Below, piece by piece: positions 3,791-34,022 of a DNA stretch of 64,000 nucleotides (positions are counted from its first letter, which is position 1; every line of letters begins with the position of its first letter). The notes below the pieces were generated by a model that was given only the letters and a program-made list of their open reading frames with translations, was not told where the DNA came from and made no database searches. This DNA comes from a bacterium. Lineage in GTDB: Bacteria; Bacillota; Clostridia; Oscillospirales; Oscillospiraceae. Both the position numbers and the translations under genes were made by a program. The DNA is taken from contig CAVLCF010000111.1 in assembly GCA_963661735.1 (NCBI GenBank), forward strand, positions 8,063 through 72,062. The letters are read 5' to 3'.

Positions 3791-3834
3791 TTCTCTGCTT
3801 CTCCTTATCCCGTTTCCAACATAGCGCTTTCTAA

Positions 3835-8317: not shown

Positions 8318-8318
8318 A

Positions 8319-9554: not shown

Positions 9555-9583
9555 ATTCAAACCTCCATAACAAAACTACAGTC

Positions 9584-10357: not shown

Positions 10358-10380
10358 AAGCTATCTCTCCGTGTTTTGTC

Positions 10381-10433
10381 TAACTGGTAATACCAGTTAA
10401 CTAGATTATATAGGTTTCGCATGTATTTGTCAA
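10381..10433 (-). promoter_or_regulatory. Consensus sigma-70 promoter of the dehydratase cluster with overlapping palindromic operators
   Basis: On the minus strand: TTGACA (10428-10433), 17 nt, TATAAT (10405-10410). This is followed immediately by CTAGTTAACT (10395-10404) and the 19-bp palindrome TAACTGGTAATACCAGTTA (10381-10399). Confidence 0.65.
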
Positions 10434-10516
10434 TTCTTTATTCTGAAAGAGCTGCACGAATTTCTCCCCGATTTTTTGTGATATTTGATGATTTTTTGAT
10501 TATTACATTTTCTTGG

Positions 10517-10545
10517 TTGACTTAGTTAACTAGGTGTGCTAAATA
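10517..10545 (+). promoter_or_regulatory. Promoter of the acyl-CoA ligase gene with the TAGTTAACTA palindrome in its spacer
   Basis: TTGACT (10517-10522), then a 17-nt spacer TAGTTAACTAGGTGTGC, then TAAATA (10540-10545). 21 of 22 nt are identical to the acd operon promoter at 40101-40122 on the opposite strand. Confidence 0.6.
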
Positions 10546-10578
10546 TAATAGGAGATTATCTTGGAAGGGGGAATTTCT

Positions 10579-16871: not shown

Positions 16872-17005
16872 TGCTTTGCCTCCTTCTTTCTTCCGGACAG
16901 AGTTTTCTGTCGTTTTCGAGGCCATTGTATGCATCGACTTTGGCGCAAGCAATGCGCTGTGCGTATCTGGTCATTTTCGCTTCCTAACTGAGCATATTGA
17001 GGAAG

Positions 17006-17034
17006 TTGACATATATTCGAATCGTTGCTATAAT
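17006..17034 (+). promoter_or_regulatory. Consensus sigma-70 promoter of TCS-2
   Basis: TTGACA (17006-17011), 17 nt, TATAAT (17029-17034). Confidence 0.6.
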
Positions 17035-17145
17035 TTTCTTGTCAAAAATGCACACTTCTCCAAAAAGTCACAAATAAAAACGCATTTTGTTTCGTGGAAA
17101 ATTGAGAGAGGCATGTGCCAATCGATGTCCGGGAGGAATGCGGCC

Positions 17146-17862
17146 ATGTGGACCATTGGTATCTGTGATGACGAGCAGGATATGCGCACGCAGCTGAAGG
17201 ATGCCCTTTTGCGCTTCAGTGGGGAAGCCAATGAGCCGTTGGAATTTATTTGTTATCGAAGTGCCGAAGAGCTCATTCAGGAAATCTCCCCGAAAGTTGA
17301 CATTCTGCTGCTGGATATCCGAATGGGCAAGTTGTCCGGCATGGAGGCCGCCCGCAGACTGCGGGACAAAGGATTCCAGCTCCCCATTATTTTCATTACA
17401 ACCATGGCGCAGTATGCTATTGAGGGATACTCCGTTCATGCATTCAGCTTTCTGAAAAAGCCAATACAGTACCAGCAACTGAAGCTTGTTCTCTGCGATG
17501 CCATCCGCATGCTGCGCCGCAGCCGGGGCGATAGCATCCAGCTGACGTGGAACGGGCAGACCACGCACGTCCAGACCCAGGACATTTTGTATCTGGAGGC
17601 ATATGGGCACCGCGTGGATATGCATATGGTGAACGGAGAAATTCTCCCCTGTTCCCCCTCCCTGTCCGAACTGGAAGAGGAGCTTGGTCCGTTTGGATTC
17701 TACCGCGCGCACAAGAGTTACCTCATCAATTTTGAATATCTGCAAAAAGTCGAATTGACAGCAATCGTTTTTGCGAATGGTCTTGCGCTGCCCCTCAGCA
17801 AACATCGCCGGAAAGATCTCCGTATTGCATTTGCCAACTATTGCGGGAGGAATATACTATGA
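17146..17862 (+). CDS. LytTR-family response regulator (TCS-2)
   Basis: ATG 17146 follows GGGAGG. MWTIGICDDEQ...LLLDIRMGKLSG receiver domain. LytTR domain FYRAHKSYLINF...PLSKHRRKDL. Confidence 0.88.
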   Translation: MWTIGICDDEQDMRTQLKDALLRFSGEANEPLEFICYRSAEELIQEISPKVDILLLDIRMGKLSGMEAARRLRDKGFQLPIIFITTMAQYAIEGYSVHAFSFLKKPIQYQQLKLVLCDAIRMLRRSRGDSIQLTWNGQTTHVQTQDILYLEAYGHRVDMHMVNGEILPCSPSLSELEEELGPFGFYRAHKSYLINFEYLQKVELTAIVFANGLALPLSKHRRKDLRIAFANYCGRNIL

Positions 17863-19181
17863 GTCTCAAGCTGCGCCCTCTGCTGATGTATATTGGAGAT
17901 ACCTCCCTGGCATTTTATTTCCTTTACTGTATTTCTACCAACATTCCAAAAATGTCCGCTGTACGAAAAGTCGCCTGTGCCGCCGCCTTTATAGAGCTGT
18001 TCTATCTCTACACAACGCCCTATCTCTTTAATTTCTGGATCCGCTTTGGGTTTCGCGTCGCGGCATATTTTTTGCTGTTTCTCGCAATAAACAAGCAGAC
18101 CTTTCGTAACACTCTGTTTTTCTCCGTATTTCTGACGCTGATTTTCACTGCTTGTCAAAATATTTTTTCCGCGCCATTTTTCTATGAATTCATGCGCAAT
18201 CAACTTCCTGTTCAATCCTCTGTCATGTCGACCATTTGGGACTGCTCCACGCAATTTCTTTTGACCGGGCTTGCGCTTCTGCTCATCTGCAATACGGTTC
18301 CTCTGAAACGTATCGAAAATCCGAACCTCGCCGAGTGGTTTGTCCTGTGTCTTACCGCAATATGCGAAATCTATGTAAAGGACACTCTATACTATTTTCA
18401 GAATAAGGCCAATCAGGATATTGCGCTGACGACCTTTACACTGATGCTGCAAATCTTTCAGCTTTGTTTTCTCGCCTTTTTTGAGAGCTTTATTGCCAAT
18501 CAGCGTTTGCAAAAGGAGCAGCACATTCAGAATATTACCAACCAATACCGACTGCAAAGTCTGGAGCAAAACCAGCATTGCGAAGAAACCGTGCGTGCTC
18601 TGAACCACGACATCAAAAATCACCTGTGCGCCATACGACAGTTAGCATCCACAGAAAACAACACGCAGCTGAATGCCTATATCAATTCGCTGCTGCGTGA
18701 GGCGGAAAGCGACAGCCGGCTGGTTGAAACAGGGAATTCATTGCTGAACGGATTACTTGCGGATAAGTCCCGGCAAGCTGCGCAAAACCATATAGAAATG
18801 GATATTCTCCTGGATTTCTCGAACATTCATTTTCTGGAAGACTGGAGCTTGTGCACCATTTTCGGAAATCTCATTGACAACGCCATTGAAGCCTGCCAGC
18901 ACATTCCTGACCCCGAACCACGTCGGATCTGTGTTCGCGGAGGCGTTGCCGCCAATTTTCTGCAAATTGTCTTCCGGAACACCTGTGTCGGAACGGTCGC
19001 ACTCCAAAATGGCTTGCCATTGACCACAAAGGAGCATCCCCAGGAACACGGCATTGGTCTGCGCAACGTCCGCAGCACTATCAAAAAATACGATGGGATT
19101 CTGGCCTTTGATACCTCTGAGCCAGGCTGGTTCCAGTGTACTGTACAAATACCGCTTCCGAATCCCGAAGAGAAAAAATGA
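17859..19181 (+). CDS. Sensor histidine kinase, AgrC/LytS-like GHKL type (TCS-2)
   Basis: ATGA overlap with the regulator stop. Polytopic N-terminus, H-box VRALNHDIKNHL, N-box TIFGNLIDNAIEAC, G-box HGIGLRNV. Confidence 0.85.
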   Translation: MSLKLRPLLMYIGDTSLAFYFLYCISTNIPKMSAVRKVACAAAFIELFYLYTTPYLFNFWIRFGFRVAAYFLLFLAINKQTFRNTLFFSVFLTLIFTACQNIFSAPFFYEFMRNQLPVQSSVMSTIWDCSTQFLLTGLALLLICNTVPLKRIENPNLAEWFVLCLTAICEIYVKDTLYYFQNKANQDIALTTFTLMLQIFQLCFLAFFESFIANQRLQKEQHIQNITNQYRLQSLEQNQHCEETVRALNHDIKNHLCAIRQLASTENNTQLNAYINSLLREAESDSRLVETGNSLLNGLLADKSRQAAQNHIEMDILLDFSNIHFLEDWSLCTIFGNLIDNAIEACQHIPDPEPRRICVRGGVAANFLQIVFRNTCVGTVALQNGLPLTTKEHPQEHGIGLRNVRSTIKKYDGILAFDTSEPGWFQCTVQIPLPNPEEKK

Positions 19182-20992: not shown

Positions 20993-22237
20993 ATGGCAAA
21001 AGAAAAATTCTCCTGGAAGGGTTATCTCGCCGGACTGAAATCCCTGCTGGCACGCAACCCTATTCTGATTATCATTATTTATTCTCTGAACCAGTACGGC
21101 AACAATATGAAAAACGGCTTCCGTACTCTGGTCGCCACCAAAATGCTTGGCCTCAGTCCTACGGTTGTTGGGTTTGCGCTGTCCGTTTTTCTGATCACAG
21201 GTCTGGTTTTCCGCACCCCCGCCGGTGCCATCACGGACACGCTGCGCTCCAAACTGAAGCCCATTATCGTTGTCTCTTTTGTTCTGAAAGGTCTTATCTG
21301 GATCGGCTTCAATTTCATTACCAATACGGTCGGCTATTATGTTCTGTTCTTCCTGGACGGTGTGATCTGGTCCTTTACAGGCACGATGCTCCCCGCCCTG
21401 ATGGCTATTTCCATTGACCGCCGGGCCATGGGCAGCGGCTACGCACTGATGATGGGCATCTGCAATATCGTGTCCGCTTCTGCCCGTTCCGCAGGCATCT
21501 CCCTGTTCAATGAGAAGGGGCTGATGACTGCCACTCTGGTGGCCGCCGCAACCGGTATTCTGACCGCTCTGGTCGCCTGCTGTCTGGACACCAAAAAGGT
21601 GGCCGGTACGCCCGCCCCCGGTGCCGGTGCTCCCAAGCCGAAGAAAAAGGGCATCCTGGCCGGGATCAGCGTATCCATGATTCCATTCTGCATCGTCGCG
21701 GCAATGCCCATCGTCCTGTTCAACGCCGAAAGCAACTTCTCCCAGATGTATTTCAATGAGCTGGGCTTTGATTTCCTGACCCCCACCACCATTGGCGGAA
21801 CTATTTATGGCTTCCTGAGCATTGCCATCGGCGTACTGTGCGACATTATGAATCCCGCGATTCTGATCACCATCGGACTGCTGGGTCAGGTTGTCGCCCC
21901 CATTATGTGGGCTGACAGCGCAAGCCCCGCCCTGATGAGTGCCGGCCTGATTATCTACTACTCCACCCGCTATTACGGCACAGCTTTCCGTGTTCTGGGT
22001 ATGAAAGCCGTCAGCCGCAGCGAGCAGGGGGCCATGTCCGCAACCATGCTGCTGTTCAACGATATTTTTTCCGTGGCCTGCACATCGATTATCGGCGTTG
22101 TCGTAACAGCCATTGGTTACGAAAAGATGTTCCTGAGTCTGGCCGTCTGGTGCGGCATCTCCACTGTCGGTTTCGTTATCCTGAATAATACCTTCCTGAA
22201 AAAGCTCAACGCCCAGCGTGCGGCAGAAACAGAATAA
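20993..22237 (+). CDS. MFS-type transporter
   Basis: 414 aa, about 12 hydrophobic segments, with a central charged loop PKPKKKG. Confidence 0.7.
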   Translation: MAKEKFSWKGYLAGLKSLLARNPILIIIIYSLNQYGNNMKNGFRTLVATKMLGLSPTVVGFALSVFLITGLVFRTPAGAITDTLRSKLKPIIVVSFVLKGLIWIGFNFITNTVGYYVLFFLDGVIWSFTGTMLPALMAISIDRRAMGSGYALMMGICNIVSASARSAGISLFNEKGLMTATLVAAATGILTALVACCLDTKKVAGTPAPGAGAPKPKKKGILAGISVSMIPFCIVAAMPIVLFNAESNFSQMYFNELGFDFLTPTTIGGTIYGFLSIAIGVLCDIMNPAILITIGLLGQVVAPIMWADSASPALMSAGLIIYYSTRYYGTAFRVLGMKAVSRSEQGAMSATMLLFNDIFSVACTSIIGVVVTAIGYEKMFLSLAVWCGISTVGFVILNNTFLKKLNAQRAAETE

Positions 22238-22261
22238 CGCATTTCTCTGCTTGCCAAAACA

Positions 22262-22305
22262 CCGCCCGATTCCACTGGAATCGGGCGGTATTTATCGTTT
22301 TTCAA
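22262..22305 (+). terminator. Rho-independent terminator after the MFS gene
   Basis: CCGCCCGATTCC / GGAATCGGGCGG stem followed by TATTTATCGTTTTT. Confidence 0.75.
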
Positions 22306-22745
22306 GGGGACCTTATATCCGTCCCAATCCGTTCAAGCAAATCCCTGGTCCGCAGCAGAAAGCCCCTGCAACAGTCCGCATTGCCGCGACGCGGTGCAGG
22401 CTTTCAAAGCGCACCGGTTTCCCTTATTGTGAATGCGTCAGCGGAAGTCTTTGGCCAACCAGGCTTCAAAAGCGTCCAACTGGGCTTAGCATATTGAAGA
22501 TTGTAAAAAAAGATGATAATCTAGCAATATCCAGGGGAAACATTGTAGAATTTGACAGTGCATACCGATTTTCCACGCCTATACATGCATTGCCTCCGGC
22601 CGGAAATTCTGCGTCTTTCCCGGAGTATGGAAGAGAATGCCATTTTTTGCCATTCCGTACCACGGCATACCTGGCGAGCCATCTTTTTCCTCACCCCGTA
22701 TAGCCGTAACTGACAAATTCCTGAAAAGAAGGAGACACGAGACCT

Positions 22746-24539
22746 ATGAACGAACGATCCTCCGTAAAAAAACATGCTGTCAGATTCTTTCTGTTTGCTT
22801 TGGCCGCCCTTCTGGTATGTTCCATTCTGAACTGGGGCGTTGTATCCAGCTGGGGCAGCGTAAAAGTAACCCGTCTTACCATTATCGGGGATGACGGCCG
22901 GCAGTACAGCGCATTATCCTACATTCCCAAAACCGCTACAAATGAAACCCCCGCGCCCGCTCTGCTCACCATTCACGGCGGCTCTTCCAATGCGAGAAAC
23001 AACGAGTCCTGGAGCATGGAATTTGCCCGACGCGGCTACGTTGTCATCGCAGTTGATAACTTTGGCGGCGGAGACAGCGAATACGTATCCGCCTACGGCC
23101 CCAATGCCGTTCCCGAAATGTTCTATGAACTTCTCCTGAGCATGGATATTGTCGATAAGGATCAGATTATCACCAACGGCCACAGCTGGGGCAACGACGC
23201 CGCCTATTCTCTTGGTCTCAAGTACAACGCGCGCGCAATTCTGATCAGTTCCGGCAATGGTTCTACCACCGGAGGCGAATTTACCGGCAACATGCTGCAG
23301 GTTTTCGGCGGCGTTGAAAACGTAGACACCGTAGAGAACAACACCGCAAACGCAGTCGCCGCCTTCAGCACAAGCTTTCCTGAGCTGACCGTCGATAACA
23401 TTGAAATCGGCAAAATCTATGGCAGCTTTGAAGAGGGCAATGCCAAGCAGCTGATAATAAGCCCTAAGCAGGTTCACGAAGGCGCAATGGTCCATACAGA
23501 CACCACAGCCGCTCTGCTGGATTTCGCCCAACAGGCAACTACAGCCCCCAATTATATCGATGCCAACAATCAGGTTTGGTATTGGAAAGACGCAGCCGGT
23601 CAGCTTGGTATCATCGCTTTCGTTGTCTTTCTGCTCAGTTTCGCAAATCTGCTGATGACCTGTGTTCCCTTCTTCTCTGCCATTGTTCAGCCTCTGCCCC
23701 GTAATATCGGTCTGAGACACACTGGCATGGCAATCAGCATCATTGCAGGTCTGGCATTCCCCGTAATTTCCTTATACACCGGCGGCTTGGGCCTAAAGAA
23801 GCTCATTGGCATTGCAGGCAAAAGCACTCTGAACCAGATTTTCTCCATGCGCGCGGGCAACTTCCCCTTCTTCGCTTTTGTGGGTATTGCGCTGCTTGGC
23901 ATCATCATGTTTTTCGTGTACCATTTCACCGACGGCAGAAAACACCACGCCAAACTATGCGATTATGGCCTTACCAGCGCCGCCAGAGACAAACTCGACT
24001 GGTCTTTGATTGGACGGAGCGCCCTTTTGGCTGCCGTCGTCATTATGGTCGGCTGGAACTATATCAACGCGCAAACCCATATTCTGGGAACTGACTTCTA
24101 CTGCCTGTACTGGGGCGTTAAGGACATCGCCAGCGTGAAATTTGTTCACTATATTCCCTATATCATTGTCTACTGTCTGCTGTTCATCCCCGCCTCCCTG
24201 GGACTGAACGTGGAGCGCCGACTGCCATCTACAGGCAAAGACAGCCTGGACTTCTTCCTGCAAACTGTCTTTAACATGTTTATGGCAAGCGCAGCCATCA
24301 CCGCAGTCGTTCTCATTCAGAACGCCATGCAGCATGCCATGGTTGGCGGCGGCAGTGCCGCTCTTGCCGGCTTCGGCATTGAAATTGTACGTATCTGGGG
24401 AATGCCTGTTGGAATGCTGGCAGCCGGTGCAGGCCAGACCTACATGTACCGGAAGTCCGGCAGTGTTTACCCCGGAGCTTTCCTGATGGGTACCTATTGT
24501 GCCCTGACCTGTGTTCTGTACGCTCAGACAAGAATCTAA
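22746..24539 (+). CDS. Signal-anchored alpha/beta-hydrolase plus polytopic membrane domain (paralog 4 of 5)
   Basis: FFLFALAALLVCSIL anchor, YIPKTATNETPAP..IHGGSSNARN, elbow GHSWG, His in QVHEG, LNVERRLPSTGKDSLD, IWGMPVGM, YMYRKSGS. Confidence 0.82.
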   Translation: MNERSSVKKHAVRFFLFALAALLVCSILNWGVVSSWGSVKVTRLTIIGDDGRQYSALSYIPKTATNETPAPALLTIHGGSSNARNNESWSMEFARRGYVVIAVDNFGGGDSEYVSAYGPNAVPEMFYELLLSMDIVDKDQIITNGHSWGNDAAYSLGLKYNARAILISSGNGSTTGGEFTGNMLQVFGGVENVDTVENNTANAVAAFSTSFPELTVDNIEIGKIYGSFEEGNAKQLIISPKQVHEGAMVHTDTTAALLDFAQQATTAPNYIDANNQVWYWKDAAGQLGIIAFVVFLLSFANLLMTCVPFFSAIVQPLPRNIGLRHTGMAISIIAGLAFPVISLYTGGLGLKKLIGIAGKSTLNQIFSMRAGNFPFFAFVGIALLGIIMFFVYHFTDGRKHHAKLCDYGLTSAARDKLDWSLIGRSALLAAVVIMVGWNYINAQTHILGTDFYCLYWGVKDIASVKFVHYIPYIIVYCLLFIPASLGLNVERRLPSTGKDSLDFFLQTVFNMFMASAAITAVVLIQNAMQHAMVGGGSAALAGFGIEIVRIWGMPVGMLAAGAGQTYMYRKSGSVYPGAFLMGTYCALTCVLYAQTRI

Positions 24540-24664
24540 CCAATATACCCGACTGTCTCCGCAAGGCAGTCGGGTCTTCGGTTCCGGCACACAATATTGC
24601 CGGAGCTTTTTTCTCGCTGTTATTGACCTTTGTATATTTGCTTCAAAACCTCCGCCTCAGCATA

Positions 24665-24714
24665 TTGATTTTTACAGCAGCATTATGCTATAATGGCAGA
24701 AGCTAGTTAACTAA
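24665..24714 (+). promoter_or_regulatory. Promoter of TCS-3 with a downstream CTAGTTAACTAA palindrome
   Basis: TTGATT (24665-24670), 18 nt, TATAAT (24689-24694), then CTAGTTAACTAA at 24703-24714. Confidence 0.5.
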
Positions 24715-24741
24715 GTATAGCAGATGCAAGGAGGAACGCAT

Positions 24742-25455
24742 ATGGTCAAAAAAATAGCCGTCTGCGATGACAGCGCTTTAGCGCTGCGGCAAACCGCCGG
24801 GTATTTTGAACAGCTCCAAAAGGAGCTGCCTTTTGAACTCTGCCCCTCCTACTTTTCCTCCGGCGAAGAGGTGCTTGCCGGGCTGGCGGAGGATACGGAC
24901 CTGCTGCTGTTGGATATTGCCATGGAGGGCATGAACGGCATTGAATGCGCCAAGGCCCTGCGGGCCAGAGGATCGAAATTTCCCATTGTGTTCATTACCA
25001 GCATGACGGAATATGCCATAGCAGGCTATGCGGTCCACGCCTTTGGCTTTCTTCCGAAGCCCGTCACCTATTCGGACTTCGCCGCCATCATAAGAGAGGC
25101 GTTGGCCGCGTCTGAAAAAAAGCCAAAAAAGCTGCTGGTCAAAACCGCAGAGGGTGTCAGCGCCATTGATCCTCAGGAGCTGATTTACGCCGAGGTTTAC
25201 CAGCATGAAACCAGCTTTCATCTGCTGACCGGACGCATTCAGGGCAATGTACAGCTTGGCTCCATCGAACCTCTGCTTCCCGCTGAAGGTTTTTTCCGCT
25301 GTCACAAAAGCTATCTTGTTTCCCTGGAGCAAATCGCATCCATCGGGCGGGACGCGCTGACAATGCGTGATGGCAGCAGCATTCCCTTGAGCAAACACCG
25401 CCGGAAAGCTTTTCTCGATGCCTACAGCCGTTTTGCGGGGGTGCGGTTTGAATGA
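24742..25455 (+). CDS. LytTR-family response regulator (TCS-3)
   Basis: ATG 24742 follows AGGAGG. KKIAVCDDS...LLLLDIAMEGMNG receiver domain. LytTR domain FFRCHKSYLVSL...PLSKHRRKAF. Confidence 0.88.
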   Translation: MVKKIAVCDDSALALRQTAGYFEQLQKELPFELCPSYFSSGEEVLAGLAEDTDLLLLDIAMEGMNGIECAKALRARGSKFPIVFITSMTEYAIAGYAVHAFGFLPKPVTYSDFAAIIREALAASEKKPKKLLVKTAEGVSAIDPQELIYAEVYQHETSFHLLTGRIQGNVQLGSIEPLLPAEGFFRCHKSYLVSLEQIASIGRDALTMRDGSSIPLSKHRRKAFLDAYSRFAGVRFE

Positions 25456-26759
25456 ATATGATCGAATGCGCAAACTTTCTCATGGATCTGCTCTTCACCC
25501 TGCTGTATTTCCGCCGGATGGACAATGCCAGTGTTCCCCCATGGCGCAGAGCGCTGGGGTTTATCTGCCTGCTGTCCACAGCAATCCTCTATCCCTCCGG
25601 CGTCTTCCCCTTTCTCTCCGGTATGGTCCAGCGCTTTTTGCTGCGGGCCGCGCTGACGCTTTTGTATGTCGTCATTGTATTCCCCATCAGCTTTTCGGCT
25701 TCCGCCTATGCCGTTGGGTATTGGTGTACCATCCATCTGCTGGTGCAGAGCCTTTTCTTCGCTCCGTTCACCTACACCCTGTTTACCGGAAAGGCAATCT
25801 TCACCGGGCAGCCCAATCTAGATACGCTTCTGTGTATCCTGCTGACTTTTCTGGTGAAGGCGATTTGCTTTCTCCCCTTCTCCTGGCTCACGCCTCTGGT
25901 TCATGTGAGTCCCGTCCGCTTTTCGGACCTGATCCCGATTTGCCTGATCGCTGCCGTAGCTCTATACGGGCGGGAACTGGCGATTCCCCTGTCGGGAGCC
26001 GAGCGCACCACCGTCTCCGAGGTCAGCAATTATTATCTGACCCTCCAGGCCGCGCTGATGGTACTTCTGGGCTATGTGGAGTATTCCCGCCGGGATCGCC
26101 GGGAAAGCGCCATGACACAGCTCAAGCAGCAGGAAGCCGAGGCGCTTCTGAAGCAGGTCCAAAACCAGGCACTCAATGCCCAGGAGGTTTCCGCCCTCCG
26201 GCACGATCTGAAAAATCATTTGCTGAGCATTCAGTTTCTGCTGTCCAAAGGAAACACAGCCGAGATCGAGCAGTATATCCAAGCCCTTCTGGAGAAAACA
26301 GTCCCCTCGCGGCGGAACTACAATACCGGTAACGAGCTTACGGACGGACTGCTGAGCATGAAGCTGGAGGACTGCCAGAGCCGCGGAACAGAAGTTACCG
26401 TAAACCTGGATATGCGCTGCGCCGACTTTCTGGACAACCTTGATCTCTGTGTCCTCTTCGGCAACATTCTCGACAACGCCCTGGAAGCCTGCGCCGAGCT
26501 GCCGCCGGAGCGCAAGGCCTACATCCGCATAACCGGCGGACAAAGCGCGAATATGTTCACGCTTCGTGTGGAAAACAGCTGCAAAAGGAACTCCGTCCTG
26601 ATCAACGGCCTGCCCGTCACCGCCAAGGCAAATGCCCAGCTTCACGGATTCGGCCTGAAAAACGTGAAAGCCGTACTGGAAAAGTACGGCGGGAGTCTTC
26701 ACGTCTTGCAGGAGGAAAGCGGTGTTTTTGTTTTGACGGCTCTGATTCCGATTCCATAA
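25452..26759 (+). CDS. Sensor histidine kinase, AgrC/LytS-like GHKL type (TCS-3)
   Basis: ATGA overlap with the regulator stop. Polytopic N-terminus, H-box VSALRHDLKNHL, N-box VLFGNILDNALEAC, G-box HGFGLKNV. Confidence 0.85.
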   Translation: MNMIECANFLMDLLFTLLYFRRMDNASVPPWRRALGFICLLSTAILYPSGVFPFLSGMVQRFLLRAALTLLYVVIVFPISFSASAYAVGYWCTIHLLVQSLFFAPFTYTLFTGKAIFTGQPNLDTLLCILLTFLVKAICFLPFSWLTPLVHVSPVRFSDLIPICLIAAVALYGRELAIPLSGAERTTVSEVSNYYLTLQAALMVLLGYVEYSRRDRRESAMTQLKQQEAEALLKQVQNQALNAQEVSALRHDLKNHLLSIQFLLSKGNTAEIEQYIQALLEKTVPSRRNYNTGNELTDGLLSMKLEDCQSRGTEVTVNLDMRCADFLDNLDLCVLFGNILDNALEACAELPPERKAYIRITGGQSANMFTLRVENSCKRNSVLINGLPVTAKANAQLHGFGLKNVKAVLEKYGGSLHVLQEESGVFVLTALIPIP

Positions 26760-26813: not shown

Positions 26814-28724
26814 TTACATAAATCTCAGCTGCCCGAACAGCACGCACATCAGCGCGGCCACAGTACCCATAAGGATGGCGGTGAGCCAGGTGTTGCCGGT
26901 TTTGCGGAACAGATAGGTGGAGCCGCCTACGCCAACGGTCATGCCTACGGGCATACCCCAGATGCGCTGGGTGTCAGCATTGAAGGTGAACAGCCACTGG
27001 TTGTCCTGTCCCACGGACTGCAAGTGCCACTTCACCGCGATGATCACGATGATCGTAAAGGTGGCCAGGACCACATTGACGAGTACCGCCAGAATATCAT
27101 CCAGGGTCTCCTTGCCGGTGGTGGGCAGGCGGCGCTCCACGTTCATACCCATGCCAGAGAGTACAAAGCAGGCGATCCAGATCACGATGTAGATCAGCAT
27201 ATGGGGAATCTTGAACAGAGGAATGCTCTTGAAGCCGAAGAACCAGGCATAGAAATCGGTACCGGTCAGCACCTCTTGGAGCTTGATGGTGCCGAATGCC
27301 ACAGCCAGGGTCATAAGGGCAACGGCCAGGGTCTTGAGGATCATCTCACCGGAGAGCTTCTCTGCGCCGTCAGGGGCAAGACCCAGCTCGCAGAGCTTCA
27401 TCTTCTGCTGCTTGCCGTCGGTGTACTTGAACAGCAGGAACGTCAGCAGGCCCAATAGGGACATACCAATTACGGTGTAGAACGCCACATTGGAGTATGT
27501 AAAATTGAAAATACCGTAGTTCATGGCATTCTTGTTCTTCGGCGTCAGCAAACCGAAAGCGCCGGTTTTCAGAACGATCCAGGGGAACAGAATCCCGCAG
27601 ACGGCGGAGACCGCGAAGCCGCCCTTGCGCAGGCCGATATTCCGGGGCATCGGCTGCCGAACAATGGAGAATCCGGGAATCAGATCGATCAGCGCCAGCG
27701 CCACCGCGCAGATGAAAGCACCGAAGCAGAGGATGCCGAACAGGCTGGTATAATCCTTGTACATCCAAACCTGGTCATTGCTGTCGATGTAGTTGGGCAC
27801 ATTGTCCACTGCCTCCTGGGCAAACCAGACCAGCTTGCCGATGGTCCCCTGGTTTACGAAAGCCGCCTCATGGATCCGCTCATGATCCAGCGTTGCGTAG
27901 TAAGCATTGCCCTCCTCAAAAGAGCCGTACAGGGTATCCAGCTGGAAGGTATCCAAGTCTTCAAAGCCCGGGCGGGTCCTGATGGATTCCAGATTGCTCT
28001 CGGCAAACTTTTCGGGTGTCGTCTCTACGTCGCCGGTAGCGGAGAGATAATTGCCCTCATAGGCATCCCAGTAGGGCTTGTAGTCATCGGGCAGCAGGGC
28101 CACCTGAGACGCGGACATGATCGCCCTCGCGTTGTACTTCGCGCCCAGAACCATTGCGGAGGTGCAGCCCATGGAGTGACCGGCCGAGATAATATTATTG
28201 CTGTCCACAAAGCCGCAGTCCAGCAGGTAATTGTAGTAGGTCTCGCCTACCTCGACCATACATCCGTTTCCGAACCCCCATTTGTCCAGGAACTGCTCGG
28301 AGTCACCGGAACCAAACTGGTCAACGGAGAGAACGACAAAGCCCCGGCGGGCAAACTCCACCGCCCAGGACTCATGGTTTCTGGCGTTACCCGCGTTGCC
28401 GTGGAAATTGATCACCGCGGGAGCCGGATTTTCGTTGGTAGCCGTCTTTGGAACGTAGAGCAGCGCGCTGAATTGGCAGCCATCCCGGCCCACCATCGTC
28501 ATACGGGTAATTTTCACATTGCCCCAGCCTGTAATGACCCCCCAGTTGAGCAGCGCCGCCAGAATCACCAGAATCAGCGTTACGGCAAAGAAACGCTTCA
28601 CGCCCTGAGTCCTTCTCTTCTTTCCCTCCGGAGTATAGAAGTTCTTGCGGAGCTTCTCGCTGAAGTCGTAGTCCTTTTTTCGCTCCTGCTCGTCAGCTCC
28701 CATGATCTGCTTGAAATTCGCCAT
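26814..28724 (-). CDS. Signal-anchored alpha/beta-hydrolase plus polytopic membrane domain (paralog 5 of 5)
   Basis: A ~45-aa charged N-terminal extension, then the anchor FFAVTLILVILAALL. YVPKTATNENPAP..FHGNAGNARN, elbow GHSMG, His in RIHEA, MNVERRLPTTGKETLD, IWGMPVGM, YLFRKTGN. Confidence 0.82.
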   Translation of the reverse strand: MANFKQIMGADEQERKKDYDFSEKLRKNFYTPEGKKRRTQGVKRFFAVTLILVILAALLNWGVITGWGNVKITRMTMVGRDGCQFSALLYVPKTATNENPAPAVINFHGNAGNARNHESWAVEFARRGFVVLSVDQFGSGDSEQFLDKWGFGNGCMVEVGETYYNYLLDCGFVDSNNIISAGHSMGCTSAMVLGAKYNARAIMSASQVALLPDDYKPYWDAYEGNYLSATGDVETTPEKFAESNLESIRTRPGFEDLDTFQLDTLYGSFEEGNAYYATLDHERIHEAAFVNQGTIGKLVWFAQEAVDNVPNYIDSNDQVWMYKDYTSLFGILCFGAFICAVALALIDLIPGFSIVRQPMPRNIGLRKGGFAVSAVCGILFPWIVLKTGAFGLLTPKNKNAMNYGIFNFTYSNVAFYTVIGMSLLGLLTFLLFKYTDGKQQKMKLCELGLAPDGAEKLSGEMILKTLAVALMTLAVAFGTIKLQEVLTGTDFYAWFFGFKSIPLFKIPHMLIYIVIWIACFVLSGMGMNVERRLPTTGKETLDDILAVLVNVVLATFTIIVIIAVKWHLQSVGQDNQWLFTFNADTQRIWGMPVGMTVGVGGSTYLFRKTGNTWLTAILMGTVAALMCVLFGQLRFM

Positions 28725-28867
28725 GTTCTTTCTCCCTTCATTTATTTTGTCTGATAAATTGATATTTTTTCCTTATCAGCATGGCGATATTGTACAAAAA
28801 TTCTTCAAAAAGTGCAATATTTCTTGCATATATGGCACATAACGCCCCGCCACTGGGAAAGGTTTTT

Positions 28868-28898
28868 GCGTGAATGGGGCGATTTCCCGCGTGAATGG
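28868..28898 (-). promoter_or_regulatory. Candidate LytTR-regulator binding site: identical 10-bp direct repeat with 21-bp period
   Basis: GCGTGAATGG at 28868-28877 and 28889-28898. In gene orientation this reads CCATTCACGC x2, matching the boxes at 1841-1871. It lies 145-175 nt upstream of ATG 28724. Confidence 0.55.
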
Positions 28899-28921
28899 AT
28901 GCATTCTCCCTTCTCAGGGGC

Positions 28922-28970
28922 AAAAAAACCGGTCGTCTGGCTCACACAAATGGGAACAAGCCAAGCGACC
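28922..28970 (-). terminator. Rho-independent terminator ending the acd...MFS operon
   Basis: Minus-strand stem GGTCGCTTGGCT / AGCCAGACGACC (two G-U-type mismatches) followed by TTTTTTT. Confidence 0.65.
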
Positions 28971-28980
28971 GATCTTGATT

Positions 28981-30222
28981 TTATTTTCTTGCAGCCAGCT
29001 CCCGCTTATCACACATACCGATAAGCGCGGTTACAACAAATCCGCCCAGGGCCAGACCTGCCATCAGGAGGTAGGTACTCAGATAGGATTGGCTGGCATC
29101 GTACAGGGAACCGGCAATGGTGCTTCCAAAGGAAGCGATCACCAGGTTTGTGTTGATTACCGAAAAATTCATGGAGAAATTCTTCTGCCCGTAATAGCTG
29201 CTGACAAACGCGGAATTGATGGGTGTTACGCCGCCATAGGACAGGCCCCCGGTAATAAAGCCGGCAACGATCAGTGCAAAGCTCCCCGTTGTCAATCCAA
29301 GGGTCAGGATGACACTGGTAACAATGAAGGATGTGTTTACAAGATTCATAGTTGACGCCCGGCCAAGCCGGTCATACAGCATTCCGGACAGGACGCGGCC
29401 CACGGCGTTAAAAATGGAAATGAGACCAACCACCGTTGCAATGGTTCCGGCGCTGACACCGGGGCCAACCTCCGAAGCGCTTCCGGTCGCCTGGCTGATC
29501 AGTGCCAGTCCGGCGGCAGACAGCAGGATCGCCCAGATATAATACAGCCAGAAGGCTGGCTTGCGGATCATCTGTCCGGTCGTCGCCTCCATGGCCACCG
29601 GATTGGCTGCGCGCTTCTTCTGCGCGCTCCCGGTCGCCTCCGCAGGCTGGGGCTTCACAAAGAAGGGGGCGCAGAGCGCCAGCACGACAGGGATCACGAT
29701 TCCCATAAACCGGAAAGAATTCCGCCATGCGCCGATCTCGTCAGGCGTGAAAGCCTGGTAAAGCTTTCCGATGGCAAAGGCACTGACGCCAAAGCCCATC
29801 AGCAGAACTCCGGAAATCAACCCCTGCTTATCCGGAAACCATTTGGTAATGGTTCCCATGACGGCATTGTACACCAGGCCGGAGCCAAAGCCGCTGATCA
29901 CGCCAAAGCCAATGTACAGCATGGCAACGCTATGGATATTGGCGGTCATCTGAAAACCGAGCAGAAACAGCACGGCCGCCGCAACTACATAGAGCTTCGG
30001 GCTGAGCTTGGCCGACAGAAAGCCGCCGGCCATACAGCCCACGCAGAACAGAATCATCGTTATGGTAAAGGTCAGCGACAGCTGTGTTTTTGTCCACTCG
30101 GTAAATTCCGCGGCAATGGGCGCCGAGAGGACACTCCAGGCATAGATGATCCCGGCGCAGAAAAGCACCAGCACACCAACCGCCGCATATACCCAGCGAT
30201 TCAGTTTGTTCATTGATTTCAT
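28981..30222 (-). CDS. MFS transporter (oxalate/formate-antiporter-like subfamily)
   Basis: 413 aa, 12 predicted hydrophobic segments. Last gene of the operon. Confidence 0.7.
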   Translation of the reverse strand: MKSMNKLNRWVYAAVGVLVLFCAGIIYAWSVLSAPIAAEFTEWTKTQLSLTFTITMILFCVGCMAGGFLSAKLSPKLYVVAAAVLFLLGFQMTANIHSVAMLYIGFGVISGFGSGLVYNAVMGTITKWFPDKQGLISGVLLMGFGVSAFAIGKLYQAFTPDEIGAWRNSFRFMGIVIPVVLALCAPFFVKPQPAEATGSAQKKRAANPVAMEATTGQMIRKPAFWLYYIWAILLSAAGLALISQATGSASEVGPGVSAGTIATVVGLISIFNAVGRVLSGMLYDRLGRASTMNLVNTSFIVTSVILTLGLTTGSFALIVAGFITGGLSYGGVTPINSAFVSSYYGQKNFSMNFSVINTNLVIASFGSTIAGSLYDASQSYLSTYLLMAGLALGGFVVTALIGMCDKRELAARK

Positions 30223-30228
30223 ACCCTC

Positions 30229-31308
30229 TTACTTCTCTTCAAAAATGTGGGCTGTCTCCTCGCCGGCCAGGACGCGCAGCGCGCCCAACGCCAGGGCCTC
30301 CATTTCGTTTTCTCCCGCATAGACCGTCACAGGCGCAATAAAGGAAACTCTGTGGGTGATCTCACCGCAGAAATACTTGGAATAAGCAATGCCGCCGGTC
30401 AGCACGATCCGGTCAACGGAACCGTCCACCACCACGGCCAGCTTGGCAATGCTCCGGGCCACACTCAGTGCCATGGCATCGTAGACAAGCTTTGCCTGGG
30501 CATTGCCCTCTTCCAGGGCCATTTTCTCCACCGTACGGGTGTCGGAGGTCCCAAACCAGGAGGTCAGGCCGCCGCCCCGCTGGAGCAGCTTCATGGTGCC
30601 CGCGTAATCCAGATGCTTCTCCTCCAAAGCGGAGAGCATCCGGTAAATCGGCAGAGCGCCTGCCCGCTCAGGGCTGAACGCTCCTTCGTCATCGGAGATC
30701 ATATCAATGATCCGGCCCTGGCTGTGCAGACTCAGGGTAATGCCGCCGCCCAGGTGGGCCACAATGATATTGGACTTGCCATAGTCCATATTCTCTTCCC
30801 TGCACAGGCGCAGCGCGGCGGCGCGCATGTTCAGGTTATGTCCCTGTCCGAAGCGCTGGACCTCCTTCAGGCCGGTAATACGCACCAGATCAATCATTTC
30901 ATCCACGGTGACAGGGTCATAGATATAGGCCTTCACCCCTGCCTGACGGGCAATGTGCAGCGCGATCGCCGCTCCGAGATTGGAGGCATGGTGATTCACA
31001 GGCCGGTCCCGCAGGACCTCTACCATGGCGTCGTTGACTTCGTAGGCCCCGGCGCTGACTCGCCCCAGCAGTCCGCCCCGGCTGACCACGGCGCTGAGGG
31101 AATCGACCTTCTCCCCCTTGTCCGCAATGGTTTTCAGGACCAGCTGTGTGCGCATTTCCAGCTGGTCATAGATAACGGCATAGGTTTTGATCTGCGCGGG
31201 ATCGTGCTCAATATTTTCTCCCCACTTCTTCTCTTTTCCGCAGTACCAGGCAATTTTCGTGGAGGTAGAACCGGGGTTAATGACCAAAATGTTATTCATT
31301 TCTTGCAC
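30229..31308 (-). CDS. buk: Butyrate (short/branched-chain acyl) kinase
   Basis: ILVINPGSTSTKIAWY N-terminus and HLGGGITLS, ASKHA fold. 359 aa. Confidence 0.88.
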   Translation of the reverse strand: MQEMNNILVINPGSTSTKIAWYCGKEKKWGENIEHDPAQIKTYAVIYDQLEMRTQLVLKTIADKGEKVDSLSAVVSRGGLLGRVSAGAYEVNDAMVEVLRDRPVNHHASNLGAAIALHIARQAGVKAYIYDPVTVDEMIDLVRITGLKEVQRFGQGHNLNMRAAALRLCREENMDYGKSNIIVAHLGGGITLSLHSQGRIIDMISDDEGAFSPERAGALPIYRMLSALEEKHLDYAGTMKLLQRGGGLTSWFGTSDTRTVEKMALEEGNAQAKLVYDAMALSVARSIAKLAVVVDGSVDRIVLTGGIAYSKYFCGEITHRVSFIAPVTVYAGENEMEALALGALRVLAGEETAHIFEEK

Positions 31309-31419
31309 CTCTTTTTCATAATTAACAGAATACCCATACCGCCCGTTCCTCTCAAACCAGCGGTATGGGCACCTTTAGGAGGCTCGGCAGCGGGGGCTCA
31401 GACCCGCTGCCAGGAGCTG

Positions 31420-31968
31420 TCAGATTTTCTGGCTGCGGCCGATCTCCAGGCCCTTTTCAAACGCCTGGCGGTTCAGCGGCAGCAGCTTTGCCTTCTTGGC
31501 AAGCTTGTGCTCAATGGTGTTCCAAACGATCTCAGGCGCGATCACTTCGGTATAGCCGACGTAAACGCCCAGCATGATCACGTTCAGCACCTTTGCGTTT
31601 CCCATTTCCAGAGCAAGCTCGGTAACGGGAGCGCTGACAACTGTAATATCCTTGCGGTCGATCTCGTCCTTCACAATACTGCTGTTGATGAAAAGCGTAC
31701 CGCCGGAACGCAGTGTTTTCAGAAATTTATTCAGGGACGCGCCGTTCATAACGATCAGGTCGTCCATAACATCGCCCAGAGGCGCGCCAATGGGTTCATC
31801 GGAGATAACGACAAAGCAATTCGCGGTACCGCCCCGCTGCTCAGCGCCATAGGAGGGGAAAAAGGTCACGTTCTTGTCGGTGGAATTGCAGGTGGCATCC
31901 GCCAGGAACTTTCCCAGGGTCATAACGCCCTGTCCACCGAAGCCGGCAACACAAAGATTGGTTTCCAT
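31420..31968 (-). CDS. 2-oxoacid:ferredoxin oxidoreductase, gamma subunit
   Basis: CVAGFGGQGVMTLGKFLA motif. 182 aa. Confidence 0.85.
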   Translation of the reverse strand: METNLCVAGFGGQGVMTLGKFLADATCNSTDKNVTFFPSYGAEQRGGTANCFVVISDEPIGAPLGDVMDDLIVMNGASLNKFLKTLRSGGTLFINSSIVKDEIDRKDITVVSAPVTELALEMGNAKVLNVIMLGVYVGYTEVIAPEIVWNTIEHKLAKKAKLLPLNRQAFEKGLEIGRSQKI

Positions 31969-31979
31969 AGTATTCCTCC

Positions 31980-32717
31980 TTATCGGTCACGCACAATGCC
32001 CAGAGGGAATTCCGGAAGCATCTTCTCCTCCAGGAAATCCAGAGCCTTCAGTGCGTCCATTCCCCAGTTGGTGGGGCAGCTGGTGACGATTTCCACCAGA
32101 GAAAATCCCTTGCCATCCAGCTGATTCTGGAATGCCTTCTTGATATACTGCTTGGTCTTGTTGACATTCGCCGGAGTATTGCAGCTGGTTCTGGCCAGGA
32201 ATACGGGAGCACGCAGCTGGTCCAAAATTTCAACCATGTGCATGGGATAGCCATGCTCCGCGGGATCCCGGCCCTGGGGTGCGGTGGTGGCCTTCATCCC
32301 AACCAGAGTGGTCGGGGCCATCTGCCCGCCGGTCATGCCATAAATACCGTTGTTGATAAAGATAACGGAGATGTTCTCGCCCCGGTTTGCGGCGCTCATG
32401 CTCTCCGCCAGACCGATGGAAGCAAAGTCGCCGTCGCCCTGATAGGTAAACACCAGGGTATCCGGATTGCTGCGCTTGACGCCGGTTGCAACGGCGCAGG
32501 CACGTCCGTGGGGGGAGGTAATGTTGTCATAAGCAATGTAATCCATCTGCAAGCCGCAGCAGCCAATACCCAGGCAGCACAGGGTCCTGTCGACCAGGCC
32601 CATCTCGTCCAGGACCTCACCGATGAGCTTCATAACCGTGCCGTGCATACAGCCGGGGCAAAAGCCGGAGACCTTGTCCTCCTGGATCGTCTTTGTACGG
32701 GAATAGATCTTTTCCAT
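31980..32717 (-). CDS. 2-oxoacid:ferredoxin oxidoreductase, beta (TPP-binding) subunit
   Basis: FCPGCMHG and GDGDFASIG thiamine-diphosphate motif. 245 aa. Confidence 0.87.
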   Translation of the reverse strand: MEKIYSRTKTIQEDKVSGFCPGCMHGTVMKLIGEVLDEMGLVDRTLCCLGIGCCGLQMDYIAYDNITSPHGRACAVATGVKRSNPDTLVFTYQGDGDFASIGLAESMSAANRGENISVIFINNGIYGMTGGQMAPTTLVGMKATTAPQGRDPAEHGYPMHMVEILDQLRAPVFLARTSCNTPANVNKTKQYIKKAFQNQLDGKGFSLVEIVTSCPTNWGMDALKALDFLEEKMLPEFPLGIVRDR

Positions 32718-32719
32718 CT

Positions 32720-33802
32720 TTACTTGCCCTCCAAAATCGAATTGACTGCCTCGATGACCTTTTCACGGCTCATAATATTGCCGCCGGAGCAGAGGCAGGT
32801 CTGAATGGGGCAGCGCTCCTTCACGCCGGCCTTCACGTCCTCAATGAATTGGGCGGGAATGGACATTTCTACATCCAGGACCGCTTTGATGTTTGCGTAG
32901 TTCAGCCGGTCAAAGGCCTTATAGGGGAAGGGAGAAACGGTAATGGGACGAATCAGGCCCACTTTCTTCCCCTCCTTGCGCAGCATATCCACAGCGCTCT
33001 TAGCGATACGGGCGGAAATACCGTAGGCCGCGATAACGACCTGCGCATCCTCGGTCAGATATTCTTCCACCCGAACGTCCTTCTCCCAGCTCTCATACAG
33101 CGCCGCGGCTTCCTCGTTCTTCTGCTGCTGTACAATGGTGGACCACTGGCCGGGTTCAATCCAGGCGCGGTTCTTATAGTCCAGCGGGTGGCCTACGCAA
33201 GCCCATTTCCGCTTGGATTCCTTGATGGCGGCAACCTCTTCCTCGCTCTTCATCTCAGGCAGGACAACCGGCTCCATCATGGTGCCGATAACACCGTCCG
33301 CCAGGATCAGCACAGGGTTACGGTCCCGATCCGCATAGTCAAATGCCTGATAAGTCATATCAACGGCCTCCTGCACCGTGCTGGGCGCGAACACCAGCAT
33401 CCGGAAACCTCCGTTGCCGGATGCCTTGGTAGCCTGGAAATAATCCATCTGGGCAGGCTGGATAGAGCCCACGCCGGGGCCGCCGCGGCTGACATTGCAG
33501 TAAACCATAGGAATTCGGGCAGAGGCACAGTAGCTGATACCCTCGCTCTTCAGAGAAATTCCGGGGCTGGAAGAAGAAGTCATCGACCGGGTACCGGCAG
33601 CGGCCGCACCGTAGACCATGCTGATGGACGCGACCTCAGACTCACCCTGGACGAACTTTCCGCCAACCTCCGGCATCCGCCGGGCAAAATACTCGGGGAT
33701 TTCGTTCTGCGGCGTAATGGGATAACCGGCGAAGAACCGGCATCCGGCACGTACGGCTGCCTCCGCGATCGCTTCGCAGCCTTTCATAAATACACGGGCC
33801 AT
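32720..33802 (-). CDS. 2-oxoacid:ferredoxin oxidoreductase, alpha subunit
   Basis: ATG 33802 follows AGGAGG. MKGCEAIAEAAVRAGCRFFAGYPITPQNEI. Confidence 0.87.
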   Translation of the reverse strand: MARVFMKGCEAIAEAAVRAGCRFFAGYPITPQNEIPEYFARRMPEVGGKFVQGESEVASISMVYGAAAAGTRSMTSSSSPGISLKSEGISYCASARIPMVYCNVSRGGPGVGSIQPAQMDYFQATKASGNGGFRMLVFAPSTVQEAVDMTYQAFDYADRDRNPVLILADGVIGTMMEPVVLPEMKSEEEVAAIKESKRKWACVGHPLDYKNRAWIEPGQWSTIVQQQKNEEAAALYESWEKDVRVEEYLTEDAQVVIAAYGISARIAKSAVDMLRKEGKKVGLIRPITVSPFPYKAFDRLNYANIKAVLDVEMSIPAQFIEDVKAGVKERCPIQTCLCSGGNIMSREKVIEAVNSILEGK

Positions 33803-33821
33803 TTTCCTTGTCCTCCTTAAA

Positions 33822-34022
33822 TTATTTGTATACCTCAATCGCGCCGTCAGGGCACATTCTCGCGCAGATGCAGCAGCCCACGCAGCTGTCCGCGTTTACG
33901 CTCTCCACAACCTCATAGCCCTTGGAATTGACCTTTGTTCCAATCGCCAGCACATTTTTGGGGCAGAACTTCACGCAATAGCCGCAGCTCTTGCAGCGCT
34001 CCGCCACAATTTCAACCTTTGC
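33822..34022 (-). CDS. 2-oxoacid:ferredoxin oxidoreductase, delta subunit (2x[4Fe-4S] ferredoxin)
   Basis: ATG 34022 follows AAGGAGG. CKSCGYCVKFCP and CVGCCICARMCP motifs. Confidence 0.85.
   Translation of the reverse strand, partial: AKVEIVAERCKSCGYCVKFCPKNVLAIGTKVNSKGYEVVESVNADSCVGCCICARMCPDGAIEVYK

Follow-up and report, generated by a model that had tools for sequence, protein, structure and literature searches.

A predicted four-box LytTR-type operator upstream of a membrane hydrolase gene in an Oscillospiraceae genome

What is the role of an exact decamer that occurs twice, at a 21-nt period, between a transcription terminator and a hydrolase gene? The question is raised by a 64,000-nt stretch of an Oscillospiraceae genome (contig CAVLCF010000111.1 of assembly GCA_963661735.1, positions 8,063 to 72,062; hereafter the window), which carries five hydrolase paralogues and three response regulators (RRs) with LytTR DNA-binding domains. 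A first-pass annotation had noted the decamer, CCATTCACGC, upstream of the fifth hydrolase gene (paralog 5) and taken it for a real regulon motif shared with paralog 1. Our analysis indicates that the two copies are probably boxes 1 and 2, the distal half of a four-box, 21-bp-phased operator (28826–28898, minus strand) for a LytTR-family response regulator. Judged by its layout, the site, which we call P5, is a fresh example of the known class of LytTR direct-repeat operators and not a new kind. Its elements are listed below, with box positions relative to the predicted transcription start and scores from a position weight matrix (PWM).

28981–30222, minus strand: gene of the major facilitator superfamily (MFS; lactate/oxalate-formate type), the upstream neighbour of the array
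28923–28976, minus strand: intrinsic terminator of the MFS gene, a strong hairpin of −23.8 kcal/mol (z = −3.5) followed by U7; the boxes are 27 nt beyond the U-run
28889–28898, minus strand: box 1 (distal), CCATTCACGC, predicted at about −116 to −107; exact match; PWM score 10.9, top 7e-5 of window positions
28868–28877, minus strand: box 2, CCATTCACGC, predicted at about −95 to −86; exact match, 21 bp from box 1
28847–28856, minus strand: box 3, CCAGTGGCGG, predicted at about −74 to −65; degenerate, exactly +21 from box 2
28826–28835, minus strand: box 4 (promoter-proximal), CCATATATGC, predicted at about −53 to −44; degenerate, exactly +42 from box 2
28812–28817, minus strand: predicted −35 element TTGCAC (3/6), 8 nt after box 4
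28789–28794, minus strand: predicted −10 element TACAAT (5/6) after a 17-nt spacer; invariant in L079, L080 and L001
26814–28724, minus strand: paralog 5, hydrolase of 636 aa (Pfam Abhydrolase_1/Hydrolase_4/AXE1), with the Shine-Dalgarno sequence AAGGGAGA at 28731–28738

The first-pass description of the repeat itself was accurate: there are exactly two minus-strand copies, both match CCAYTSACGS, the consensus of the paralog-1 boxes, and they lie between the terminator of the preceding operon and paralog 5 in the order described. Read along the minus strand, the MFS stop codon is followed by the hairpin and U7, 24 nt, box 1, 11 nt and box 2, and then by 50 nt, TTGCAC-17-TACAAT, and a 64-nt leader with its Shine-Dalgarno sequence that ends at ATG 28724, 144–174 nt downstream of boxes 1–2. 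Boxes 3 and 4 occupy the 50-nt interval, so that three spacers of 11 nt each maintain a 21-bp period throughout. These two boxes, not listed in the first-pass annotation, settle the activation geometry that it had considered unclear: from the end of box 4 it is 8 nt to the −35 and 31 nt to the −10, distances also seen at paralog 1.

Published LytTR sites consist of 9–11-nt repeats with 11–13-nt spacers (PMC4847170) or of a pair of 9-bp repeats 10–13 bp apart upstream of the −35 (PMC11347149). LytTR operators have at least two imperfect direct repeats of 9–11 (12) nt, and P5 has two exact and two degenerate in-phase 10-mers; its spacers lie within the 10–13 nt, and its period within the ~20–22 bp, of that class. 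The array as a whole stands at a fixed distance just 5′ of the predicted −35, whereas the perfect boxes alone are 50 nt away from it. RR3 (LytTR E = 8e-16) and its kinase HK3 adjoin the target gene, RR1 and RR2 are also in the window, and the array is conserved in orthologous promoters and co-occurs with the regulator. With 10-nt direct repeats, 11-nt spacers, a position 5′ of the −35 and LytTR regulators nearby, P5 thus fits the published operators.

How far does the array rise above chance in the window? An exact 10-mer repeat at lag 21 was observed once, where first-order Markov simulations predict 0.05 per window. When every lag from 11 to 40 is allowed, exact 10-mer repeats number nine against 1.8 expected; they are not rare, and the bare repeat is therefore only marginal evidence. 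A PWM trained only on boxes of other promoters (paralog 1 and related loci) is more discriminating, as its top three 20–22-bp-phased pairs in the window are P5 boxes 1/2, the paralog-1 pair and P5 boxes 2/3, and phased pairs with a summed score of at least 18 number three against 0.2 expected from shuffles. Box 3 scores 9.35 (top 1.7e-4 of window positions) and box 4 scores 3.58 (top 4.5e-3), and all offsets within 3 nt of either are negative. Without any motif model, the self-similarity of 28826–28898 reaches 0.48 when the shift is 21 nt and 0.52 when it is 42 nt; other shifts give about 0.24. The consensus CCAYTSACGS has five matches in the whole window: the two P5 boxes, the two paralog-1 boxes (1841–1850 and 1862–1871, plus strand) and one in-gene match at 22969. 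We rejected this last match, CCATTCACGG (22969–22978, plus strand, inside paralog 4), as a coding coincidence; it spells codons of a conserved L-T-I-H-G-G (oxyanion HG) motif and recurs inside homologous genes of L054, L060, L067 and L070, which come from unrelated genomes.

Related loci (numbered with the prefix L) were drawn from a genome scan with the five-paralogue alignment, which gave 78, and from a metagenome scan with paralog 5, which gave 4 more. In two close relatives, L079 and L080, the hydrolase is 98% identical to that of the window, and RR3 and HK3 are 93–96% identical. Boxes 1 and 3 are identical in both; box 2 is identical in L079 and differs by one substitution in L080, becoming CCATTCGCGC, the box sequence of L005; box 4 is identical in L080 and differs by one substitution in L079. 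Compared across the window, L079 and L080, the boxes have 2 variable columns in 40 and the inter-box spacers 15 in 33 (Fisher p = 5e-5). The array begins right after a terminator in the window, in L079/L080 and in L001, and the gene before it is a different one each time: the window has the MFS gene there, L079/L080 have an additional MATE-like gene, and L001 has yet another. Because the DNA 5′ of box 1 is unrelated across these contexts, the array belongs to the hydrolase gene. The L001 locus, from a metagenome-assembled genome labelled Faecalibacterium sp., is more distant (hydrolase 83%, RR3 68% and HK3 57% identical); its alignment with the window is gapless from the T-run of the terminator to the −10, and its boxes have diverged to CCAGTTGCGC, CCGGTTGCGC, CCGCTTGTTC and CCGGATGCGC.

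When aligned on their −10 elements, other RR3-like modules, with regulators 39–49% identical, keep the four-box register. Four-box arrays occur at RR3-like modules in L001, L005, L007, L014, L081 and L082, with diverged box sequences and the register kept; the register of box 4 in particular matches L001, L005, L014, L081 and L082, all anchored on the −10. The boxes of L005 are CCATTCGCGC twice, then CCACTGGTGC and CCACTGGCGC, and those of L081 are CTATTCGCGC, CTATTCGCGA, CGATTGAAGG and CTATTGGCGC. Box 3 of P5 resembles the proximal boxes of L005 (CCACTGGYGC) and L006 (CCAGTGGGGC). Two-box versions at the same distance to the −10 were found in L004, L006, L012, L015, L016, L017, L025, L032, L068 and a second module of L082. 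The L082 contig, which is metagenomic, holds two tandem regulator-kinase/hydrolase modules (positions 8646–8740 and 3806–3912); one has a four-box and the other a two-box promoter, the latter reading CCATTTGCGC / CTATTGACGA, 8 nt, TTGAAT-17-TTAAAT; two- and four-box layouts thus coexist in one genome, as they do in the window.

A LytTR regulator and an AgrC-like (HATPase_c_5) kinase lie beside the hydrolase in 18 loci, all from Clostridia (tblastn), and phased boxes precede the hydrolase in 17 of them. Across 0.93 Mb of loci searched on both strands, 27 of 31 high-scoring phased pairs are on the hydrolase strand, most less than 250 nt from the hydrolase start; two further phased pairs precede the regulator gene in regulator-kinase-hydrolase operons (L017 and L020). 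No two-component system adjoins the hydrolase homologues from Chloroflexota, Syntrophales and other groups. Boxes and spacers of six independent four-box promoters differ only weakly in information content (0.86 against 0.65 bits). Box sequences are particular to each regulator, and registers shift by 1 nt; the close-strain footprint is the better test. To the extent that sequence comparison allows, the first-pass claim of a real motif is supported: the footprint and the phased boxes at homologous hydrolases point to a cis-regulatory motif tied to LytTR systems, which may or may not define a single regulon with paralog 1.

The distance from boxes to promoter also recurs among these sites. The promoter noted in the first-pass annotation, TTGCAC-17-TACAAT (28817–28789), does lie 50 nt after box 2, and its description as a good sigma-70 promoter was too generous: it matches 8 of 12 consensus positions, 3 of 6 in the −35, and falls below the threshold of our promoter scan, which demands at least 4/6 in the −35. 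A −35 this weak fits dependence on an activator. If transcription starts 7 nt after the −10, as we assume, the start would be near 28782, the box centres would be at about −111, −90, −69 and −48, and the centre of the proximal pair at about −59. P5 has exactly the same spacing, with the last box 8 nt from the −35 and 31 nt from the −10, as the promoters of paralog 1 (P1, called independently by the scan tool) and paralog 3 (P3) and as L014, which has four boxes, 8 nt and a scan-called TTGAAC-17-TATAAT. Spacing within 1–2 nt of this occurs at L001, L004, L005, L006, L025, L081 and both L082 promoters, and the 8-nt gap itself also at L081 and L082. The two sister sites in the window are:

1841–1871, plus strand: P1 site, two boxes matching CCAYTSACGS, CCATTGACGG (1841–1850) and CCACTCACGG (1862–1871)
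1880–1908, plus strand: P1 promoter TTGAAC-17-TATAAT, 8 nt after the second box, which ends 31 nt before TATAAT; 5′ of paralog 1 (ATG 1958)
16961–16991, minus strand: P3 site, TCAGTTAGGA / CCAGATACGC, the fourth-best phased pair in the window, missed by the CCAYTSACGS consensus
16924–16952, minus strand: P3 promoter TTGCTT-17-TACAAT, 8 nt after the P3 boxes; 5′ of paralogs 3 and 2

Which regulator would act at P5? The five hydrolase paralogues in the window are 23–41% identical to paralog 5 and are accompanied by three LytTR response regulators, all of them paired with a membrane kinase of the AgrC-like (HATPase_c_5) type, and each of the three box-bearing promoters (P1, P3 and P5) adjoins one such pair:

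1–1070, minus strand: HK1, histidine kinase partner of RR1, cut short at the window start; it has the HHDMKNH H-box and the first part of HATPase_c_5
1082–1801, minus strand: RR1, divergent from paralog 1
1958–3790, plus strand: paralog 1
13248–15056, minus strand: paralog 2
15078–16871, minus strand: paralog 3
17125–17862, plus strand: RR2, divergent from paralogs 3 and 2
17841–19181, plus strand: HK2
22746–24539, plus strand: paralog 4
24724–25455, plus strand: RR3, response regulator with a LytTR DNA-binding domain (Pfam Response_reg + LytTR)
25452–26759, plus strand: HK3, AgrC-like (HATPase_c_5, by Pfam) membrane histidine kinase with N-terminal transmembrane (TM) segments, convergent with paralog 5

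RR3 is probably the regulator of P5, and the most probable of the three on genomic context. The reason is linkage: RR3/HK3 and paralog 5 are kept together as a block in L001, L079 and L080, between strains as well as between species, where other genes nearby, such as paralog 4, vary. In L005, L081 and L082 the gene of an RR3-like regulator is transcribed divergently from the very promoter that carries the four boxes. In several four-box promoters (window, L005, L081 and L001), the two distal boxes are conserved best and resemble each other most, and weakness is seen above all in the third box; from this we infer hierarchical loading.

We propose that HK3 would phosphorylate RR3 upon some signal and that RR3~P dimers would first occupy the perfect distal pair (boxes 1–2, at about −111 and −90). 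The weaker proximal pair (boxes 3–4, at about −69 and −48) would be loaded next, probably cooperatively, on the same face of the DNA, with two helical turns per box. From boxes 3–4, 8 nt before the weak −35, the regulator could then recruit RNA polymerase and activate, rather than repress, the sigma-70-type promoter TTGCAC-17-TACAAT. The activated promoter, with its predicted start near 28782, would drive paralog 5, a putative membrane-anchored serine esterase/peptidase. The layout of the boxes, their phasing, their conservation and their company of LytTR systems are observed in the sequences. Binding, its order and its cooperativity, the direction of control, the start site and the choice among the three regulators are all put forward here as predictions from sequence.

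Several points weigh against this proposal. The P1 and P5 boxes have nearly the same consensus, and adjacency alone cannot assign RR3 over RR1. For most relatives the −10 hexamer was chosen by eye and in the knowledge of the spacing to be expected, so that the spacing comparison is partly circular; the scan tool called only the promoters of P1 and L014, and that of P5 was called in the first-pass annotation. Box 4 is weak and A/T-rich and can be read as a −10-like element instead. Upstream of the RR3 operon (24540–24723) there are no forward phased boxes, which differs from many autoregulated LytTR systems. None of the public sequencing runs checked carries the window sequence (the best share of sampled words was 0.09, and zero were RNA runs), so the P5 transcription start is a prediction only. 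Finally, we found no four-repeat LytTR operator described in the literature searched, and the cooperative hierarchy is accordingly an argument by analogy.

The reading of box 4 as a promoter element leads to an unlikely alternative in which only the two perfect boxes function, serving a separate weak upstream promoter with its −10 in the A/T-rich CCATATAT (about 28835–28829, TG-n-CATATA), and TTGCAC-17-TACAAT is independent and constitutive. The distance from box 2 to CATATAT, 33–35 nt, is near the canonical 31 nt, TG precedes CATATAT, and the weak box-4 score would be accounted for. Yet the same register is G/C-rich and box-like, not −10-like, in L001 (CCGGATGCGC), L005 (CCACTGGCGC, as above), L081 (CTATTGGCGC), L014 and L082, and it was for this reason that CATATAT was dropped as the −10 of our main model. 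The two-box alternative also leaves box 3 unexplained, although that box is strongly box-like and invariant in the close strains, and in the gapless alignment the window and L001 both keep 49–50 nt between box 2 and the downstream −35. As real LytTR sites, the boxes might instead be bound mainly by RR1, or by several of the three regulators, with paralogs 1 and 5 forming one regulon. The shared CCAYTSACG of P1 and P5 boxes 1–2 and the plausibility of cross-talk among paralogous LytTR systems favour this arrangement, which we nonetheless regard as rather improbable: RR1 and RR3 are only 35% identical, every box-bearing promoter has its own adjacent regulator/kinase pair, and the conserved RR3/HK3/paralog-5 block and the divergent RR3-like regulators described above speak for RR3. 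Three parallel modules with related specificities and possible cross-talk are at least as likely as one shared regulon.

That the repeats serve something other than LytTR activation, as a repressor or roadblock site, as a target of another direct-repeat-binding factor or as part of an RNA element, has precedents in VirR, reported to stimulate or repress its targets (PMC4877802), and in CoxC, a LytTR repressor that uses three repeats (PMC11347149). We consider it very improbable here. The array is wholly upstream of the −35 without the overlap seen with CoxC, the 21-bp period and 10-nt boxes fit LytTR, and phased boxes co-occur strongly with LytTR systems; moreover, the array is 5′ of the predicted start and hence would be outside the transcript of the P5 promoter, and an Rfam scan of 28600–29050 returned nothing relevant. 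A chance repeat without function could appeal to the numbers for the bare decamer: roughly one window in 20 would hold a single exact repeat at one lag, and repeats are common when nearby lags are counted. It is effectively refuted by sequence comparison, given the P1 consensus match, the in-phase boxes 3–4, the conservation of boxes amid diverged spacers (p = 5e-5) and the recurrence in more than 15 homologous loci. The four-box LytTR operator, with RR3 as its probable regulator, is the reading that we retain.

What would such an operator control? By hydropathy, paralog 5 has one N-terminal TM helix, an alpha/beta-hydrolase domain of about 255 aa with a GHSxG nucleophile elbow, and about seven C-terminal TM helices, in a region with a conserved NVERRLP(S/T)TG motif. 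Searches of Pfam, NCBIfam and PDB gave only generic alpha/beta-hydrolase or esterase matches. In an AlphaFold model built from the five paralogues, of modest quality (pLDDT 63), Foldseek matched the predicted hydrolase domain only, to PETase (PET46), feruloyl-esterase and DPP4 catalytic-domain folds; the 7-TM membrane domain had no match in sequence or fold searches. Our literature search found no paper on this hydrolase family or linking LytTR systems to it. No AgrB-like gene was found among the larger open reading frames scanned around the three modules, a scan that did not include small peptide frames or a dedicated AgrB/AgrD search.

Work on LytTR systems is extensive for pathogens (agr, VirSR, com and blp) and, to our knowledge, scarce for commensal gut Clostridia. 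A broader proposal, in which we have slightly less than even confidence, is both that the four-box array represents a conserved higher-order LytTR operator not described so far (strong distal pair, weak proximal pair, 8-nt gap) and that it marks a widespread uncharacterised cassette of gut and rumen Clostridia. If so, two regulator dimers loaded in sequence could give threshold-like induction, and the cassette would dedicate an AgrC-like kinase and a LytTR regulator to one membrane-anchored esterase/peptidase with a 7-TM tail, often in several copies per genome (three here) that are gained and lost between strains. Two things are modestly new in our view: the layout with four boxes and, in gut Clostridia, a cassette whose kinase and regulator are dedicated to a hydrolase. 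P5 offers a precise operator, with four boxes, a fixed 8-nt gap, natural variants in related genomes, a one-gene output and a probable cognate regulator. It raises the questions of how LytTR dimers make use of repeats beyond the second, by what means a genome keeps three paralogous kinase/regulator/hydrolase modules apart or lets them cross-talk, and which signal controls this membrane hydrolase family. The spacing rule (8 nt from the proximal box to the −35 and 31 nt from it to the −10) should aid promoter annotation and the correction of start codons, for example that of paralog 3.

The mechanically assigned start of the paralog-3 open reading frame (TTG 16952) falls inside the P3 promoter; the true start is probably ATG 16871 (MKKTTKVF..., Shine-Dalgarno sequence GAAGGAGG), with a leader of about 45 nt, and paralog 2, 21 nt after paralog 3, probably shares the P3 promoter. 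Back-to-back with that promoter and facing RR2/HK2 is a perfect sigma-70 consensus, TTGACA-17-TATAAT with an upstream TG (17006–17034, plus strand), so this pair looks constitutive rather than autoregulated. The RR3 operon likewise has TTGATT-18-TATAAT upstream of it, in a region free of boxes. The region upstream of paralog 4 lacks a 21-bp-phased forward array and an obvious promoter; it contains CCA-initiated decamers at a 10-bp period (22640–22689, plus strand: CCATTTTTTG, CCATTCCGTA, CCACGGCATA, CCTGGCGAGC and CCATCTTTTT) and, in inverted orientation, a box-like TCAGTTACGG (22704–22713, minus strand). In the predicted leader of paralog 5, an inverted repeat CTGATAA-N15-TTATCAG (28743–28771, minus strand) may form a leader hairpin or a second operator; L079 and L080 have GATAAGG-aaaa-CCTTATC at the same position.

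Comparison of window positions 20993–24723 with L079:7993–9908 and L080:7996–9908 showed that gene content varies between strains. In L080, RR3 is directly followed by a homologue of the MFS gene at 20993–22237, so that paralog 4 is missing together with about 500 nt upstream of it; L079 has another LytTR regulator/kinase pair in place of paralog 4. The MATE-like transporter that both strains have in addition (462 aa) is encoded between the MFS gene and box 1. Modules of hydrolase and two-component genes behave as gain-and-loss cassettes between strains. The first module is whole in the genome and truncated in the window, with HK1 at the window start. Surrounding genes (7202–12177 and 30229–33838) encode two 2-hydroxyacyl-CoA dehydratase subunits and their activator, an acyl-CoA synthetase, a butyrate kinase and 2-oxoacid:ferredoxin oxidoreductase subunits, and point to a butyrate-forming member of the Clostridia that ferments amino acids or organic acids. 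Given this butyrate kinase and the 51% G+C of the window, we judge the Faecalibacterium sp. label of the nearest genome match doubtful.

How, then, does P5 compare with LytTR systems of known mechanism? AgrA binds as a dimer, and the proximal repeats at agr P2/P3 are centred at about −60 (PMC4227749). P5 resembles these Staphylococcus aureus sites in its direct repeats (about 9–10 nt there), its ~21-bp period, its sub-optimal sigma-70-type promoter and the predicted centre of its proximal pair near −59, and HK3 is of the AgrC-like HATPase_c_5 kinase type. It differs in box sequence and in having four phased boxes for one promoter, where agr has one pair per promoter; its promoter has a 17-nt spacer and its weakness in the −35, whereas the agr spacers are over-long (18–20 nt); and its target is a membrane hydrolase, unlike the regulatory RNA and the system's own operon at agr.

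VirR boxes of C. perfringens come as a pair of imperfect 12-bp direct repeats, and both their integrity and their spatial arrangement are critical (PMC2688746). P5 shares with Clostridium perfringens VirR, and with C. difficile RgaR, the placement of direct repeats 5′ of the target promoter in a clostridial LytTR system; unlike VirR it has four boxes, not two, and an uncharacterised hydrolase as its target instead of toxins or small RNAs. The window boxes (CCATTCACGC) do not fit what we take to be the VirR consensus, and we have not filed P5 as a VirR box; the L001 boxes begin CCCAGTT, presumably resembling one, and fit that consensus in part.

Closer in repeat number are the RcoM1/CoxC operators, where three 8-bp repeats with 12–13-bp spacers are all needed for efficient binding of the LytTR domain (PMC11347149). 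They share with P5 the use of more than two evenly spaced direct repeats; they belong to one-component sensors (haem-PAS or MHYT) and have three repeats, whereas P5 has four beside a two-component regulator, and the CoxC operator overlaps the −35 and represses, whereas the P5 array ends 8 nt upstream of it. For the order of loading, YpdB at Escherichia coli yhjX fills two direct repeats (GGCATTTCAT, sites A and B) sequentially and cooperatively, the high-affinity site loading the weaker one, and PlnC binds tandem sites cooperatively at plnA (PMC4847170). YpdB has two sites only, works with a LytS-type kinase that answers pyruvate, and its box sequences have no similarity to those of P5. The proposed hierarchy is borrowed from YpdB, from PlnC and from the all-repeat requirement of RcoM1/CoxC, and by this analogy the strong distal pair of P5 would assist the occupation of the weak proximal pair beside the promoter.

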